In this document: piece by piece, positions 8,129 through 22,596 of the stretch
Layout: each line of letters starts with the position of its first letter
Position numbering within the stretch: position 1 is the first letter of the stretch
From: Escherichia phage ph0011
Direction: 5' to 3' (one strand)
Sequence record: OP557969.1
Length of the DNA: 64,000 nt
Made by a program: the position numbers and the translations under genes
Notes under the pieces: model-generated
Database searches by the model: none
The model's input: only the letters and a program-made list of their open reading frames with translations
What the model was told of the DNA's origin: nothing

Positions 8129-8136
8129 TATAAATA
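8129..8136 (+). promoter_or_regulatory. T4-type late promoter motif TATAAATA
   Basis: exact TATAAATA about 30 nt upstream of the 8168 start. Confidence 0.55.
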
Positions 8137-8167: not shown

Positions 8168-10867
8168 ATGGCAAATAAAATATATGGTGGTATTGATGTT
8201 ACACACAATGTCACAGTAAAAGGTAAGAGAAGTGCTCAGAGCATCAATGATGACGTATTTGATGAAAACGGCAATCTCACAATAGATGCATATACACAAA
8301 ATGATATGTTAGAAATGGTTGGTATGTTACCAATTTCTCGTTATGGTACACAAAACTATCTACCTGCTGGGGTTAATGGTACAACAGTTGGTTCTTCAGA
8401 AAATATTAATTCCAGAAATACAAAATTATTTTTGGAAGATGATAACACTTTAGTAATGTTACGTCCAGGTACTAATGGTAGTACTCAAGGTGTTTATTAT
8501 AGTTATATGACCCAAGCAGTAGGTACAACAAATACAAGTCGTATGGTTAATACTACTCGTGCATATAAACCCAATTACTTTGGTGCAGCATACGCAGTTT
8601 ATTTGTACCCAAGTAGTAATGATATTACTTGCGGTTTAGTGAGAATGGAGAATACCGATGGTACATATGTTGATAAAGTTTTTGTGTCAGATAATAATGG
8701 TACATTGAATGATGCAATGCACACTGGTATTATTCTATCAGATCATACAGCAGTACAACCTTTTGGTGCAATACAATTTGTTATTCGTGCAGAAGATGGT
8801 GCATTATATTTTTTTAGTTTAGACACACCAAATAATACTCTTAAAATATCCGTTACTAAAGTTACTTTTAGTCCAAGTAATAACCCAGGTGGTGGTACTT
8901 ATAGTATTACTAGAATTACTGGTTGGACTACAAGAACTTTTTATAATGCAATGATAGCTGATGAGAACATTGTTCCTACGATGAAAATAAATTCAACAAA
9001 TACCAATGATACTCCATACGTTTTAATTCCAAGCGGTATTATTGGGTTTGGTGTTTATATGACAGATCCAGATTTATATGTTGCACAGAGATCAGGTACA
9101 TCTACATTCAAATTTAGATTATGTGGTGATATGTGGATGAGTAATGGTAGATATGACATACGACCACAACATAGTTTTAGTATGACTTTTGATGTTGCAA
9201 CGAAGCAATGTGCACTCGATAATATGACAACGACTACACCAGTTGCTGTTTATGACAATGGTTCTAGCATGAATGCAACTGGACCTTGCTTGACAACTGA
9301 CCCATTTTATCTTCATGCAGGTGCACGTAATATTTTCAGTAATTATTGCTATATTCCATCAACAGGGGATGCGTTTTGTTCATTTTCACCAAACCTAGCA
9401 GAACCATTGAATTTATCATATGCAAAATACCCACCAAAATCTTTATTTGATTTGATGGATGTTAGAAGTGTGTCAGCAACTAATTTTATTAATGGTGTAG
9501 TAACACCAAGATTTGGTTCAGCAGTTGGGTCATACCAAGTAGGTGTAGAGTTATTACCAAATAACAGTACTAAACAATATTCAAGACGTTCTGGTGATGG
9601 TCGTTTTTTTCCATCCTATGCTGTTCATAAATCTACACCAAACTTTACATTCAAGTCGTTGAATTATGGTACAGTACCTGGTTATGAACCAACACCTGAC
9701 AGAAATTTCATAACCACACCAGAATCACGCATTTTTATAAGTTCAATATCTGGTTCAAACGTCACTACTAATGGTGGTGTTTTGGTTGCTGACATTAGAA
9801 CATCAACACCAATTAGTTTTGATTATAAAGGTAATGTACTGAATAATGGTACAATCAGTATGTCTCAAGATATAATGAATGCTATTAGGAATTCAGAATT
9901 TGCTAAAGTTGCTGGTTCTTGGGATATATCCCCAGCATCAGTAAAAACATTATCAGTTTTCGTTCCACAACAAACTGATATTCCTGTTTTCGCGGTTCTT
10001 GCTGCAACAACTAATTCCAGAGGACTATATATTCGTATGATTGAATTAGGTGTTAATACAAGAACAGGAGATATTACAACGTGGGCATTTAAACGTTTAG
10101 TACATGAAAGTGTTCAAGCTCTGGATTACAAAACTGATGCCGGATATTATCTTGATAGTGGAAGTATTGGTATTACTATATATGATGCTGGTTCTTTTTA
10201 CTTCATTGGTGGTGGTATTCCAGGTTTCTTTCCTACAGTTGGTAATACAGCTTCACCTTTTTTTCGTGCTACTGTAGATAAAGCAAGTAAGCAATTTAAT
10301 AATTTCCATATAGCTGGTAATCGACCTATCTATGCATTAGACGGTCAACCATTTGCTTTACCTGGTATTGGATTTGGTATTCTTCAAAGTATAGATCTTC
10401 AAAACAAAACTATTTTTAGAAAGTATGGAACTACATTAGAAGATTATAATGCATGGACTGATAAAGGAGATCCATTCATTTGCGTTGTTTCACAAGACGT
10501 TGCTCAAGGTTTTATTATATACTTCACTGAAGAGACACCAGTACTGATATCAGGTAAGCACTATACATTACCAATATCAAATATTGATTTAACAAAAGTG
10601 AAAGCAAATCCTGCGAATACTACATTTTATGTGTATATTAAATTAGTGCAGGGTATTGCAAAGTATCATATATCAACAACTGAATTAGCTGAAACTCAGT
10701 CAATATTCTGGATTGGTACAGTGAAAACTAATGATTTACAAATAACCGAAATTAATATCGTTAAACGTTCTCGTTTAGATCTGTTTGGTGCATCCTATGA
10801 CGCTGCCGGAAGTTCATTCCCAGTTAGTTCTGGTTTCCCTTCAGGTTCTGGTAATGTGAATTGGTAA
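8168..10867 (+). CDS. large putative tail fibre / receptor-binding structural protein (paralogue A)
   Basis: 899 aa, S/T/G/N-rich; late promoter upstream; N-terminal LPISRYG motif and conserved ~90-aa C-terminal module shared with 10878 and 11479 ORFs. Confidence 0.5.
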   Translation: MANKIYGGIDVTHNVTVKGKRSAQSINDDVFDENGNLTIDAYTQNDMLEMVGMLPISRYGTQNYLPAGVNGTTVGSSENINSRNTKLFLEDDNTLVMLRPGTNGSTQGVYYSYMTQAVGTTNTSRMVNTTRAYKPNYFGAAYAVYLYPSSNDITCGLVRMENTDGTYVDKVFVSDNNGTLNDAMHTGIILSDHTAVQPFGAIQFVIRAEDGALYFFSLDTPNNTLKISVTKVTFSPSNNPGGGTYSITRITGWTTRTFYNAMIADENIVPTMKINSTNTNDTPYVLIPSGIIGFGVYMTDPDLYVAQRSGTSTFKFRLCGDMWMSNGRYDIRPQHSFSMTFDVATKQCALDNMTTTTPVAVYDNGSSMNATGPCLTTDPFYLHAGARNIFSNYCYIPSTGDAFCSFSPNLAEPLNLSYAKYPPKSLFDLMDVRSVSATNFINGVVTPRFGSAVGSYQVGVELLPNNSTKQYSRRSGDGRFFPSYAVHKSTPNFTFKSLNYGTVPGYEPTPDRNFITTPESRIFISSISGSNVTTNGGVLVADIRTSTPISFDYKGNVLNNGTISMSQDIMNAIRNSEFAKVAGSWDISPASVKTLSVFVPQQTDIPVFAVLAATTNSRGLYIRMIELGVNTRTGDITTWAFKRLVHESVQALDYKTDAGYYLDSGSIGITIYDAGSFYFIGGGIPGFFPTVGNTASPFFRATVDKASKQFNNFHIAGNRPIYALDGQPFALPGIGFGILQSIDLQNKTIFRKYGTTLEDYNAWTDKGDPFICVVSQDVAQGFIIYFTEETPVLISGKHYTLPISNIDLTKVKANPANTTFYVYIKLVQGIAKYHISTTELAETQSIFWIGTVKTNDLQITEINIVKRSRLDLFGASYDAAGSSFPVSSGFPSGSGNVNW

Positions 10868-11478: not shown

Positions 11479-14220
11479 ATGGCTTCTAGACGAATTATAG
11501 GAAACGCAGATATACTAGGGAATTTAAAAATTAATGGAAAGTATGCATTACGTTCCCTTAATGGTGTTCCTGCTGACTCTGCTGGTAAAATCACTTATCA
11601 ATATTATGACAAAGCGGAAGTAAATCAGATATTTGATATGCTTCCAGTTTCAAGGGTAGGTGATCAAGATTACCTACCAATGAGTATTAACGGTACTTTT
11701 GAAGGTGCTTCTTCCTTTTCATTTGCAAAAATAATGCAACCTTGTATCATTGAAAATGATGGAACTGGTGTAATTTTACGTGCAGGTACAAATGGAAGTT
11801 CTTATGGTTACTATTATACTTATATTAAAAATATAAGAGATATAGAAACACTAACTCAAGATAATATAATTACAACCAATACGATGTATAGACCGTCTGT
11901 GCTACCAAGTACTGATTACATTTATGAATTTTATGGGTCAAATGCATATGAATTACTATTTTGGGAATCAACTGATAGAACATCATATTACCTTACATTA
12001 ACAAATGAAACATTGAATGAATCAGCACACAAGCATTGCAGAATTCCAAAAACAGCAATAACAAATAAACCAATATATGCACACATCGTAAATGATTCAG
12101 TTTATATATGGTGTATGGATTCAAGTGTATTTAGTAGTGTTCGCGGGTGTGCATTTATTATATACACAGTACCTTTAACTGCATTTAATACTGGTTCAGT
12201 TTCTACCGTAACACAGATTGGTGGTTATTCAGGAAGAACTATAAGAGATGCAACATATACTGCATCTAATAATATTCGCGTTTATGATAGCTATTCTATT
12301 TTAGGTTCAGGTGGTGATGCACTAATAGTATATGATAATGGTATTTCCAGAATAGATTATTGGGAAAATAACGTATTTAATACCCAAGCAGTTCTTAGCC
12401 CAGATGGTACAAAAATAAGAGTTGCGATCTATCCAGGATTCCGTGTTTTCACTGAAACAAAAACATCTAGTGTATATGCACTTGGTATTAGCTTTACATA
12501 TGATATCAGTACTAAAACAATGACACTTGACGGTTCTGAACGTGGTCCAATCAGAGTATCAGCTAATACATCAACTGGTAGTATAACAGTAAGAAACCCG
12601 TTTTCAATCAATATGGAAAACTTTACAGGGTTTTATGACGGTGCACTTGGCAACTATGGTTCAATCTGTCAAACTTCTGATGGTTTTGTTTTCACCACCA
12701 AAGCAAGATGGACATCCACACCAACATATGCAGTACAAACATACAAAGTTTCTGGTACACCTTATGATAGTTGGGTCGCTAAAACACGTACTGCTAGTAA
12801 TTTAAAACGTGTCGAAGTAATGCCAGTTTATGGTTCCCCTGTCGGTGAAAACTTAATAGGTGTTCGTTTCGTAGATAAACGTAAGATACTTGTTGCATGT
12901 TCTGGCACTGCTGATGGAATTTCTTATGGTTATGATAGTACAGTTTTTACTGAAATAGGTGAGAATCCGACTTATGTTTATAAAAACTTGGAACAAAATA
13001 CCACAATGAATGGTTTTGCACCATCAAGTAATAGACACTATTTAAGTACTGATTACAAATATGCAGGTATGATAACATTGGTTGATGCAAATGGAAATGT
13101 CAGCACTTATGGTTCTTCGTTAATAGAAGACATCGATAAACCAGCGTATGGAAAATTCGACCCAGTTACAATGGACTTCGACAGTAATAGATATGAAATT
13201 TCAGGAACAACATTATCAAGTATAGGTGATAATGCAATCGCTAAAGCTGGATTGTCTGGAATAACTGATCATAAAACTGTTTTTTATTATGTACCTGATA
13301 CTACATATTCTAAATCGATTGCAGTCACTTCTGCATTAAACGGTACTACCAATGTGTGTTATATTATTTTTTCCGAAATATCATGTAGTGCAGTTGGTAC
13401 AAGTGGTACTATAATTTTACGTGATATTAATGTTGATACAGCAAGATATACATCAATGACGAATACATTCCAAATTTCACCAAATGAAATGGTCAAACGT
13501 TGGGCTGGTATGACGGTTTCTAAGTTTAGTGGTTTTAACTACTTAGGTGTGAACATTTTATATGGCATTGATACCCCAGGTTGGACTCGTTATCCTAACA
13601 TGATTGCTAAAGTGAAAAATGGTATTATTTCAAGTCAACGATATATGGAAACAACTTATATTTCAAACGCACAATTTGATATAGGTACAATTCCAGGGAT
13701 TGGGTTTGGATATTACCAAATGAACAAAAACGATTATCAAACTAAATCAGTTTTTGCTGTATGTGGTACTACTGAAGCAGATATGGATAAACTAATATCT
13801 GGTAATGAAACGATATCACAGTACTTAGTTATTGCTTCACAGGACGTGGCACAAGGGTTTCATGTATACTTTTCACAAGAAGTACCAGTTTTCTTGGGTG
13901 GAAAGTTTGCAAAGATACCACCGACTATGATAGACTTATCTACTATAAGTACTACACCAGAGAATTCAACATTCTACATATATGCGGTGATGGATAGAGA
14001 TACATCCACAGCATCGTATCAGATATCACTACATCAATTATCAGAAACTATGACATCAACATACATTGGTAAGATAGTAACTAATAATAATGGTATTGCA
14101 TCAATCGAGTCTGAAAAAGTTTCCAGATTCTTGCTATACCGTCCAAGTACCTACAATCGTGGTTCTGCGATCCCAGCAAGTTCTGGTGTTCCGTCAGGAA
14201 CAGGTACACGTTGGAATTAA
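11479..14220 (+). CDS. large putative tail fibre / receptor-binding structural protein (paralogue B)
   Basis: 913 aa; N-terminal MLPVSRVGDQDYLP and C-terminal GSAIPASSGVPSG module shared with 8168 ORF. Confidence 0.5.
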   Translation: MASRRIIGNADILGNLKINGKYALRSLNGVPADSAGKITYQYYDKAEVNQIFDMLPVSRVGDQDYLPMSINGTFEGASSFSFAKIMQPCIIENDGTGVILRAGTNGSSYGYYYTYIKNIRDIETLTQDNIITTNTMYRPSVLPSTDYIYEFYGSNAYELLFWESTDRTSYYLTLTNETLNESAHKHCRIPKTAITNKPIYAHIVNDSVYIWCMDSSVFSSVRGCAFIIYTVPLTAFNTGSVSTVTQIGGYSGRTIRDATYTASNNIRVYDSYSILGSGGDALIVYDNGISRIDYWENNVFNTQAVLSPDGTKIRVAIYPGFRVFTETKTSSVYALGISFTYDISTKTMTLDGSERGPIRVSANTSTGSITVRNPFSINMENFTGFYDGALGNYGSICQTSDGFVFTTKARWTSTPTYAVQTYKVSGTPYDSWVAKTRTASNLKRVEVMPVYGSPVGENLIGVRFVDKRKILVACSGTADGISYGYDSTVFTEIGENPTYVYKNLEQNTTMNGFAPSSNRHYLSTDYKYAGMITLVDANGNVSTYGSSLIEDIDKPAYGKFDPVTMDFDSNRYEISGTTLSSIGDNAIAKAGLSGITDHKTVFYYVPDTTYSKSIAVTSALNGTTNVCYIIFSEISCSAVGTSGTIILRDINVDTARYTSMTNTFQISPNEMVKRWAGMTVSKFSGFNYLGVNILYGIDTPGWTRYPNMIAKVKNGIISSQRYMETTYISNAQFDIGTIPGIGFGYYQMNKNDYQTKSVFAVCGTTEADMDKLISGNETISQYLVIASQDVAQGFHVYFSQEVPVFLGGKFAKIPPTMIDLSTISTTPENSTFYIYAVMDRDTSTASYQISLHQLSETMTSTYIGKIVTNNNGIASIESEKVSRFLLYRPSTYNRGSAIPASSGVPSGTGTRWN

Positions 14221-20224: not shown

Positions 20225-20259
20225 TGGGACAATAATTGAACCTGTGATATAATGTATAT

Positions 20260-20782
20260 TGTAAAATGACAACGGACATTGTAAAAAATGGACACTGAAA
20301 ACCTAATTCACTTGAAAATGTAAAGGATAGATGAGCTTTACCGTTGTAGCGAACAGCAGAAGAAACCCGTTAGAGTACTGGCATTCAAACAAACACGATG
20401 TAAGACCACGAATCACGGCGACACGGCTGTATAAAGAACTCCGATAAGCATACAGAGAGTTCCTAGATAGATGTATAAGGTTCGCACCTTACCAGATTTG
20501 CTAAGGGAGTTTAAGAATGGCGAACGCAATTTTTACAAGAAAGTTGCGTCCAAAATTTGAGAACAAGTACTACTTTGATCGAATAGAGTTAGTACTGAGT
20601 GCTGTTGATGAAAAGACCAGCGACCGTTGCATATGACTGCGATAGAGAGAAACCGAGCAACCCGCTTTCGCTCTCTAAATCTTTGGTACGAGAAAGATCC
20701 GTCCAAAATTTGAGAAATTCGCAATTCGATAATATCCGATGCCATCAGCGTCAAGAAGAGACTTAATTGTCTCTTTTTTATT
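20260..20782 (+). ncRNA. candidate structured non-coding RNA region (no + strand ORF, GC-richer than flanks)
   Basis: about 600 nt without + strand ORF of 60 codons or more in an otherwise gene-dense array; TGaTATAAT -10-like element at 20245-20253; nested stems (gttcgc/gcgaac, cctta/taagg, agagag/ctctct); 17-nt direct repeat cgtccaaaatttgagaa at 20547 and 20700; ends at terminator 20755..20782. Confidence 0.3.
20755..20782 (+). terminator. intrinsic terminator
   Basis: aagagac/gtctctt stem, loop ttaatt, T-run. Confidence 0.65.
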
Positions 20783-20919
20783 ACTTTCATTCCCCTGTGG
20801 GGGATGAAATAGTCCTCAACAAATCCCGTCAAGTTATTAAAATACATTATCATTATTCAGAAGTAACAAGTTTACGAAGTAAACGAAGTGACTTCTTGGG
20901 TTGCGAGAGAACGAAGTGA

Positions 20920-21348
20920 ATGAGTAACACAACGAAAATATATAATAAATCTGAATTAACACAATTGTTATTCAAAGAATATTTTGAGTTTCAGATAAAA
21001 GACGAACATCAATTACCACAACAATACTTGAAAAGAATTAAAGATACGTCAGTAATTACTAAAGAAACTAATTTTTATAATAGTATTTTGGATTTCGTTA
21101 AATCAGTTCATACGACAAGACCTATTGTAGTTTTGTTTTTTGATAAATCTATCCCTTTAGTAGTTCCCGAAAATGTATTTTTTATCTCAGAAACTGATTT
21201 AAATAACCAAAGTACTATAAGTAGATTAAGAAATTGCTTACTTGTAGTATGTGATTCTTATTTGTATAATAACAGAATACTATGGGATAGAAGCAAACGC
21301 AATGCAATTTCGGAAATGAACCCTGAACTTACATTTATTATTAACTAA
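20920..21348 (+). CDS. hypothetical protein
   Basis: ORF track; ATG. Confidence 0.45.
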   Translation: MSNTTKIYNKSELTQLLFKEYFEFQIKDEHQLPQQYLKRIKDTSVITKETNFYNSILDFVKSVHTTRPIVVLFFDKSIPLVVPENVFFISETDLNNQSTISRLRNCLLVVCDSYLYNNRILWDRSKRNAISEMNPELTFIIN

Positions 21349-21354
21349 ATACCA

Positions 21355-21362
21355 TATAAATA
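21355..21362 (+). promoter_or_regulatory. T4-type late promoter motif TATAAATA
   Basis: exact TATAAATA about 20 nt upstream of 21381 start, followed by AAGGAGAGA SD. Confidence 0.55.
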
Positions 21363-21380
21363 ACTCTAAGGAGAGATTTT

Positions 21381-21821
21381 ATGGAAAATATTGAAAATTT
21401 GAGACATGTTATGGATTTTATCATTGATACTGAAGAAGATAGTGCTTATGATGAAATCCTACTAACTTTTATTGAAAATAGTTTGTTTTTAAGTTCTGCT
21501 GCACATAACTGGCATTTACAAAGCCGATTCTATACTAAGCATCTTCAACTGGATGAACTATACAAAGAGTTACCTGAGTATGTTGATGCATTTGTAGAGG
21601 GTATTATGAACACACGCGGTGCATTACAGGTAGGAACTGGTAACAGTTATCGTTTTACCCCTATCGAAGATTGTGTACCAATTCTTGAAGAATATGCGAG
21701 TCAATGTAAAGCCATTCATGCTATGCTTGAGGAAGCTGAAGACTATGGCAGTACTAACACATTAGAAGATATTATTAGTTTTGTAGACGGTGTGCTTTAC
21801 AAACTTAAAGTTTTACAATAA
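21381..21821 (+). CDS. Dps/ferritin-like four-helix-bundle protein (tentative)
   Basis: AHNWHLQSRFYTKHLQLDELYKELPEYVDAFVEGIMNTRG resembles the Dps helix pair (HWNMRG..F..H..LD ... AER) as recalled. Confidence 0.4.
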   Translation: MENIENLRHVMDFIIDTEEDSAYDEILLTFIENSLFLSSAAHNWHLQSRFYTKHLQLDELYKELPEYVDAFVEGIMNTRGALQVGTGNSYRFTPIEDCVPILEEYASQCKAIHAMLEEAEDYGSTNTLEDIISFVDGVLYKLKVLQ

Positions 21822-21827
21822 AATATA

Positions 21828-21858
21828 TGGAGAGTCATTATGACTCTCCATTTCTTTT
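21828..21858 (+). terminator. intrinsic terminator
   Basis: tggagagtca/tgactctcca 10-bp stem, 3-nt loop, T-rich tail. Confidence 0.65.
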
Positions 21859-21869
21859 GGAGGATATAT

Positions 21870-22223
21870 ATGAGTGATTACCGAGTAACATCTGGACTAA
21901 TGGCCCGACTTATTGAAGCAGTTCCTAAAGAGGATTATGAAGCTATTTCAGATCGTCTTTTTGACGCAGATTCTAAACTCCATATTACATATGATGGTAC
22001 ATTAATTTACAGTACTGATATTGATATTCCTAGCTATGAATTTGAGATTTCTTTTGGTAGCAAACTAAGTACTGAAGAATTCGCTCGAAAATGTGAGCGT
22101 GAAGGGCTGTGTATTGATATCAGTTCAGTTCAGCCATACACGTCACTGTGGTATGATGGTGCTGATAGTCCAATGTCTACTACAACTTTACAGGATTTTC
22201 TAAATGCAAATAAAAAAGATTAA
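21870..22223 (+). CDS. hypothetical protein (start moved downstream of terminator to GGAGGA-ATG)
   Basis: ORF-track ORF 21840 begins inside the terminator hairpin; ATG at 21870 has SD. Confidence 0.45.
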   Translation: MSDYRVTSGLMARLIEAVPKEDYEAISDRLFDADSKLHITYDGTLIYSTDIDIPSYEFEISFGSKLSTEEFARKCEREGLCIDISSVQPYTSLWYDGADSPMSTTTLQDFLNANKKD

Positions 22224-22596
22224 ATTCCACCAGCATTGTTCTATACATGAATGTGATGATTGTGGTATGAACATGAGTGACATTTATACAGTTTCCTGTA
22301 AAGGATTCAAATTCACACACGGTGAACCTGCTTATTGTTATGGGACAGAAGAAGGTGATATCGAAGTAGTACTGAAAGAATTGTTCCAGTACTTGCAAAG
22401 TGCTGGTTATGATGTTACAATGCCCACATATTACGAAGATGATTATGACTCACATGTAGAAGAAAATACATATTATAATCAATTTGTTCATGGTAATGGA
22501 TTTATCACATACCTTCATGAGAATGGTATTGAGGTAAAAACTAAGTACACAAGTGATGATTACGAAAGTGATGACTCTATGGAGATTGAAGATTGA
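22204..22596 (+). CDS. hypothetical acidic protein (start uncertain)
   Basis: ORF track; several candidate ATGs. Confidence 0.35.
   Translation: MQIKKIKFHQHCSIHECDDCGMNMSDIYTVSCKGFKFTHGEPAYCYGTEEGDIEVVLKELFQYLQSAGYDVTMPTYYEDDYDSHVEENTYYNQFVHGNGFITYLHENGIEVKTKYTSDDYESDDSMEIED

Follow-up and report, generated by a model that had tools for sequence, protein, structure and literature searches.

The locus and its surroundings

The window, a stretch of 64,000 nucleotides from Escherichia phage ph0011 (OP557969.1), is of the Asteriusvirus type of jumbo coliphage; the region shares 93.7% nucleotide identity with phage UE-S1 and about 91% with phAPEC6, 121Q and PBECO4, all of them jumbo myophages of the genus Asteriusvirus with genomes of about 350 kb. 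The gene considered here lies at positions 21381–21821 on the plus strand, as given in a preliminary description of this DNA. It starts with ATG and encodes a Dps-like protein of 146 amino acids (16.8 kDa, pI 4.3) which belongs to the DUF5856 / T4 RI.-1 family. The peptide AHNWHLQ...NTRG, quoted earlier as the Dps-like segment, is present in the translation and extends over residues 41–80, rather than 40–85 as first reported. With a G+C content of 0.34, the gene matches its surroundings and it is an ordinary orthologue of genes that have already been sequenced in about 35 close phage genomes; orthologues include phAPEC6 gp306c (85.6% amino acid identity) and CBB_169 (54.6%). It is surrounded by small genes without an assigned function, together with tk and a gene for an HNH endonuclease.

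Some features of the flanking DNA deserve mention in their own right. The downstream open reading frame, 21840–22223, has a mechanically assigned start that falls within the terminator hairpin of the Dps-like gene, and the ATG at 21870, preceded by GGAGGA, is its probable true start; the product gives a full-length match to PHROG 10749 and also matches UE-S1_466. In the same region, at about 21822–22300, a 1.4-kb query from the window splits into two pieces over 2031 bases in phAPEC6, 121Q, PBECO4 and others, implying an indel of about 630 bp; collinearity with the window is kept in UE-S1, Turkey3 and WPEC3. Upstream, about 700 bases (20225–20919) carry no plus-strand reading frame of at least 60 amino acids amid otherwise tightly packed plus-strand genes. 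The sole reading frame there encodes 106 amino acids on the minus strand (20533–20853) and lacks a PHROG match, and a small opposite-strand gene, gp307, is annotated in the corresponding gap of phAPEC6. A tRNA scan of the window yielded none.

Transcription and translation signals

Two late-promoter-like elements precede the gene on the plus strand. The first, ACTAAATA at 21344–21351, has the core CTAAATA (21345–21351), overlaps the TAA stop codon (21346–21348) of the upstream reading frame 20920–21348, and lies 10 nt upstream of the second, an exact match to the T4-type late promoter octamer TATAAATA at 21355–21362. The octamer had been noted previously and is indeed present, but the two elements differ in their conservation. 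On comparison of the loci, CTAAATA was found at the same place in UE-S1, Turkey3, JNE01, 121Q, phAPEC6, CBB, GAP32 and XbC2, and it is retained in the Asteriusvirus and Mimasvirus loci included in the comparison; in Salmonella phage 7t3 the position reads TATAAATA. In CBB this element corresponds to the late-type promoter Porf_169, "CTAAATACGGTATC", of Table S7, and a gp55-like sigma factor, CBB_244, has been reported for the same phage (PMC5259590). The octamer position, on the other hand, reads TATAATAA in UE-S1, TAGAATAA in Turkey3 and AGAGAATA in 121Q and phAPEC6; at least one change occurs there in each of UE-S1, Turkey3, JNE01, 121Q and phAPEC6, such that the exact octamer occurs in the window only. 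Since it is not kept in the nearest relatives, the octamer would be specific to this lineage, either as a second promoter or as a fortuitous match.

RaK2, EJP2, TH47 and Aeh1 carry ATAAAT-type motifs in unrelated upstream contexts and, over the orthologous loci compared, an element of the CTAAATA or TATAAATA type precedes the start by about 30 nt. In TH47, the protein is 91% identical and the upstream sequence is wholly different, yet TATAAATA is found about 40 nt before the start, which suggests that a late promoter has been retained by the gene even after rearrangement.

The octamer is rarer than chance in the window, with three copies, all on the plus strand, where shuffled sequences lead one to expect 11.0 ± 3.2. 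Exact copies at 8129 and 11357 lie upstream of two paralogous plus-strand reading frames of about 900 amino acids (8168–10867 and 11479–14220), which both belong to phrog_3573 and are about 26% identical to one another. The copy at 8129 directly follows a terminator-like hairpin and is located 31 nt before the first of these frames, whose 899-residue product is 52% identical to phAPEC6 gp323c, a virion-detected protein; the second shows 50% identity to an unannotated 2.7-kb stretch of phAPEC6 (L015 7586–10309).

The strong Shine-Dalgarno sequence that had been described for the Dps-like gene, AAGGAGAG, lies at 21368–21375 (plus strand), 5 nt before the ATG; its AAGGAG is kept in UE-S1, Turkey3, JNE01, 121Q, phAPEC6 and CBB, and the distant loci carry AAGGA or AGGAG variants. 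Downstream, an intrinsic terminator at 21827–21859 (plus strand) consists of a hairpin (21827–21851), with an 11-bp stem ATGGAGAGTCA/TGACTCTCCAT and a 3-nt loop, followed by the T-run TTCTTTTG. A hairpin and T-run occupy the same position, with different stem sequences, in phAPEC6, RaK2, CBB, GAP32, 7t3, XbC2 and EJP2; in all, eight phages have such a hairpin behind the gene, and the UE-S1 record annotates a terminator there. Because both the gene's own promoter element and the terminator are conserved in position, the gene would be an autonomous late unit, and the sequence supports its reading as a self-contained transcription unit made up of a late-type promoter, a Shine-Dalgarno sequence, a coding region and a terminator. 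The earlier proposal that the protein is made late thus gains support from the conserved promoter element, from the terminator and from the detection of orthologues in virion preparations (see below).

Family, fold and ferroxidase residues

Assignment of the protein to a family is straightforward. It matches Pfam DUF5856 (PF19174) with 94 bits against a gathering cut-off of 34.6, residues 45–142 covering profile positions 1–94 of 94, and PHROG 858 with an E-value of 4e-33. T4 RI.-1 matches DUF5856 at 5e-33 (114.5 bits) and is found directly from the window protein by BLASTP (E 7e-8); a link between the RaK2 orthologue and RI.-1 of Aeh1 had already been made in the RaK2 paper (PMC3622015). The DUF5856 hallmarks, H45, H54, Y61, D69, E73 and a C-terminal LYKLK, which are invariant or at least 90% conserved in 120–180 members, are all present. 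An exhaustive profile search (E ≤ 0.001) produced 828 DUF5856 representatives of clusters formed at 50% identity; most members have 120–150 amino acids and some are fused to other domains. The fusions, of which P0050, P0065, P0082, P0098, P0174 and P0063 are instances, include proteins with an N-terminal DUF5856 domain and a variable C-terminus of 200–270 amino acids, others in which the domain is C-terminal to an unrelated region of about 240 amino acids, an 832-residue protein with a Q/P-rich linker, and a combination of DUF3008 with DUF5856. In three of the N-terminal fusions (P0050, P0065 and P0082), Trp replaces H42 and the four ligands discussed below are retained.

The resemblance to the paired helices of Dps, on which the preliminary description was based, is real and statistically supported by searches of the PDB. 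A search with the single sequence gave only weak matches to Dps (best E 0.003). With a 31-sequence profile, the significant matches were all to the Dps family (best E 7.6e-5) and, with a 120-sequence profile, 36 of the 37 matches at E ≤ 0.01 were to Dps-family proteins, the best being S. aureus Dps (2d5k, E 1.4e-9) and L. innocua Dps (1qgh, E 2.7e-7). A protein search with E. coli Dps provided a poor basis for a diverse Dps profile, all 120 matches listed being more than 80% identical. The curated thresholds for Dps and ferritin are not reached, the sole NCBIfam match, to the Dps equivalog NF006975, scoring 19.2 bits against a threshold of 114, and Pfam PF00210 scoring 14.8 bits against 24.5; the protein sits in the separate family DUF5856. 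This family is already catalogued in Pfam and in the PHROGs and relatives of the protein already bear names derived from Dps, so that the original Dps-like call was correct but not new.

Helices are predicted at residues 21–47 (A), 51–79 (B), 95–118 (C) and 122–143 (D), with a crossover loop at 80–94, and they show the arrangement of a ferritin-like four-helix bundle in which a long crossover joins B and C. Acidic residues early in helix D, E129 and D130, are conserved.

Conservation of the ferroxidase ligands was one of the checks that had been proposed for the Dps-like assignment, and it gave a clear result. In the 120-sequence profile alignment to L. innocua Dps, which needs a 3-residue deletion in the A-B loop, H45, H54, D69 and E73 fall on His31, His43, Asp58 and Glu62, D58 falls on Asp47 and Y61 on Tyr50. 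The codons of the HxxH motif, H42-N43-W44-H45 (21504–21515, plus strand), encode the end of helix A and align with H28-x-x-H31, which makes H45 the first ferroxidase ligand. The codon for H54 (21540–21542, plus strand) specifies the second ferroxidase histidine, equivalent to E. coli His63, and those for D69-A-F-V-E73 (21585–21599, plus strand) specify the ferroxidase carboxylates, equivalent to E. coli Asp78 and Glu82. Among 120 diverse family members, H45, H54 and E73 are present in every one and D69 in 119; Y61 occurs in 119 and H42 in 112. The mean column identity of these 120 sequences is 22%, and near-invariance of the four ligands at this level implies that selection has retained precisely the ferroxidase set of Dps. 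At the level of sequence, all four residues that would form the Dps inter-subunit ferroxidase site, to which one subunit of Dps contributes the two histidines and its partner the Asp and Glu, are shown to be strictly conserved.

Other registers and another type of site were considered and discarded. Placement of N43 as the first histidine position, obtained with the 31-sequence profile against the PDB, and that of H42, obtained by hhalign against a narrow enterobacterial Dps profile, were both superseded by the 120-sequence profile, with its much better E-values. A bacterioferritin-type intrasubunit di-iron site (E...ExxH...E...ExxH) was excluded since neither helix B (51–79) nor helix D (122–143) contains an ExxH motif.

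The protein carries 27 Asp and Glu residues against 9 Lys and Arg, its N-terminal 30 residues have a pI of 4.05, and the median pI of DUF5856 members is 4.8. A Lys/Arg-rich DNA-binding tail of the E. coli Dps type was not found in it. The acidity of both the whole protein and its N-terminus renders DNA condensation of the E. coli type unlikely.

Virion association and possible functions

Orthologues have been detected by ESI-MS/MS in virion preparations of two phages: phAPEC6 gp306c at 65.8% coverage from 6 peptides, one of the highest coverages in that list, and CBB_169 at 26.3% coverage from 3 peptides. In the CBB study, CBB_169 already carried an InterPro note "Ferritin-like superfamily" (PMC5259590). 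Proteins annotated as non-structural also appear in the phAPEC6 and CBB lists, so that residence in the virion is suggestive only.

We consider it reasonably probable that the gene, as a self-contained late unit, encodes a Dps-like mini-ferritin that is divergent, specific to phages and part of the DUF5856 family. Its most likely role would be that of a Dps-type ferroxidase, probably oligomeric, which, in the late phase of infection, clears Fe(II) and H2O2 and does not bind DNA. The protein would dimerise and probably build a Dps-type shell in which Fe(II) may be bound at the ligand sites and oxidised with H2O2 or O2. Fenton reagents would then be removed during replication and packaging of the phage DNA, which amounts to several hundred kilobases per particle, and part of the protein may end up in, or co-purify with, virions. 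Because the protein is acidic and has no basic tail, protection would be chemical and the DNA would not be coated. We infer in this way the roles in DNA protection and iron handling that had been raised tentatively for the protein.

An overlapping explanation, which differs only in the site of action, is that the protein is a true internal virion component, packaged with the 350-kb genome, possibly with the inner body, so as to protect DNA within the capsid; in a variant of this explanation it is ejected with the DNA to guard the incoming genome or to alter the iron or ROS status of the host. This is a possibility that we regard with some doubt. Its detection in virions purified from phAPEC6 and CBB, which represent different genera, argues for it, as do the late-promoter architecture, which resembles that of structural genes (Porf_169 of CBB is among the promoters of structural genes; PMC5259590), and the existence of an inner body in phAPEC6. 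However, the orthologue was not detected in the virion proteomes of GAP32 and RaK2, and ClpP, a methyltransferase and PhoH are included in the phAPEC6 and CBB lists, such that carry-over of an abundant late protein, or of dense iron-loaded particles, could also have occurred. A bolder and rather unlikely proposal would make the mini-ferritin a stoichiometric internal part of Rak2/121Q-type particles, packaged with the genome, perhaps in an inner body, and protecting the 350 kb of DNA against oxidative damage catalysed by iron, either within the capsid or during entry, with T4 RI.-1 also being an iron/redox protein.

Loss of the Dps chemistry, leaving a ferritin fold that serves as a non-catalytic structural or protein-binding bundle or that holds another metal or cofactor, would accord with the large divergence from Dps (15–20% identity, scores below cut-off, a short A-B loop and replacement of a Trp) and with the fusion of DUF5856 to unrelated domains in longer phage proteins. 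We judge it improbable, since conservation is highest at the four ferroxidase ligands and Tyr61 in a family of so low a mean column identity, a pattern not easily accounted for in the absence of a metal site. That pattern of invariant Dps-type metal ligands would also be left unexplained if the protein acted on lysis timing rather than on iron, as an accessory regulator with holin or antiholin partners of the kind proposed for T4 RI.-1. The latter reading draws on homology to T4 RI.-1, the gene for which is co-transcribed with rI, and on a slight prolongation of lysis inhibition when RI.-1 is overexpressed, which is greater in combination with RIII (PMC2962797; reviewed in PMC6832632). That weak overexpression effect is the sole experimental phenotype in the family (PMC2962797) and is uninformative with regard to iron; the T4 evidence comes from overexpression only. 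Moreover, the window gene is a separate unit outside any rI operon, and the reading is further weakened by the lack of recognisable RI, RI.1, RIII and T holin in RaK2-type phages (PMC3622015). A role in lysis timing is, in our estimate, decidedly improbable.

The designation "starvation-inducible transcriptional regulator" stems only from propagated annotation, namely the label given to PHROG 858 and in several RefSeq records, and a regulatory or DNA-binding function has very little to recommend it. Neither Pfam nor NCBIfam reveals a DNA-binding domain, the fold is a ferritin-like bundle, and the acidity of the protein, its N-terminus and the family at large runs against it. We have rejected this reading on account of the acidic character and the lack of such a domain. 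The name itself has apparently drifted from "starvation-inducible DNA-binding protein", that is Dps, the name used by JGI for true Dps, and in its propagated form it is misleading.

DUF5856 was not mentioned in the literature that we searched, and the papers on Atu_ph07 and Eneladusvirus contributed nothing of use. Within that literature, we also appear to have no precedent for three points: the retention of a full Dps ferroxidase set by the RI.-1 family, the unfounded nature of the "transcriptional regulator" label, and the abundance of the jumbo-phage orthologues in virion preparations. The analysis offers a function based on sequence and structure for a widespread phage family that includes T4 RI.-1 and whose function is nominally unknown. 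Should the biochemistry be borne out, large myoviruses would bring their own anti-Fenton or iron-buffering protein, late in infection and possibly in the particle, and the weak effect of T4 rI.-1 on lysis inhibition would have to be reinterpreted.

Comparison with known systems

The closest counterparts are the orthologues phAPEC6 gp306c and CBB_169, which share the locus architecture of the window but have CTAAATA only and no exact TATAAATA, and which were labelled "hypothetical" or "structural protein" in their papers, with no function proposed.

T4 RI.-1 (MobD.6; NP_049716) belongs to the same Pfam family and carries the same HxxH...H...D...E residues (H30/H33, H42, D57 and E61). Late promoters are common to both genes, the T4 rI.1-rI-rI.-1 operon having one too (PMC2962797), with TATAAATA seen in its sequence, and a thymidine kinase gene lies a few kb away in both genomes. 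The T4 protein differs in its 23% identity to the window protein, its length of 128 amino acids and its lack of the acidic N-terminal extension of about 20 residues. Furthermore, rI.-1 is the last gene of its operon, which has an early promoter as well, whereas the window gene stands alone.

With the Dps proteins of L. innocua (1QGH), S. aureus (2D5K), B. anthracis (Dlp-2, 1JIG) and E. coli, the window protein has in common the four-helix bundle with a long B-C crossover, the HxxH motif and the His, Asp and Glu in register in helix B (H-x14-D-x3-E), the tyrosine (Tyr61) on Tyr50, and the acidic residues early in helix D. It diverges from them in its 15–20% identity, in an A-B loop that is three residues shorter, and in the short BC helix, none being predicted in residues 80–94. 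The first histidine is followed by Leu (L46, a Leu in 100 of the 120 family members), in contrast to Trp32 in Listeria and Trp52 in E. coli, and a Trp (W44) instead precedes that histidine. Unlike the bacterial proteins, it is phage encoded, and its expression would fall late in the infection cycle, not in stationary phase. Its acidic character and lack of a basic tail recall A. tumefaciens Dps, which protects DNA without binding it, according to the title of 1O9R.

Dps-like proteins have also been described from myophages of Lactobacillus plantarum and from gut "Gratiaviridae" and other gut phages (PMC6669764; PMC8008677). Like the window protein they are phage-encoded and ferritin-like, and the role suggested for them is to keep oxidative damage in check while infection proceeds (PMC6669764; PMC8008677). 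They were described as recognisable homologues of host Dps, whereas DUF5856 constitutes a separate, phage-specific branch.
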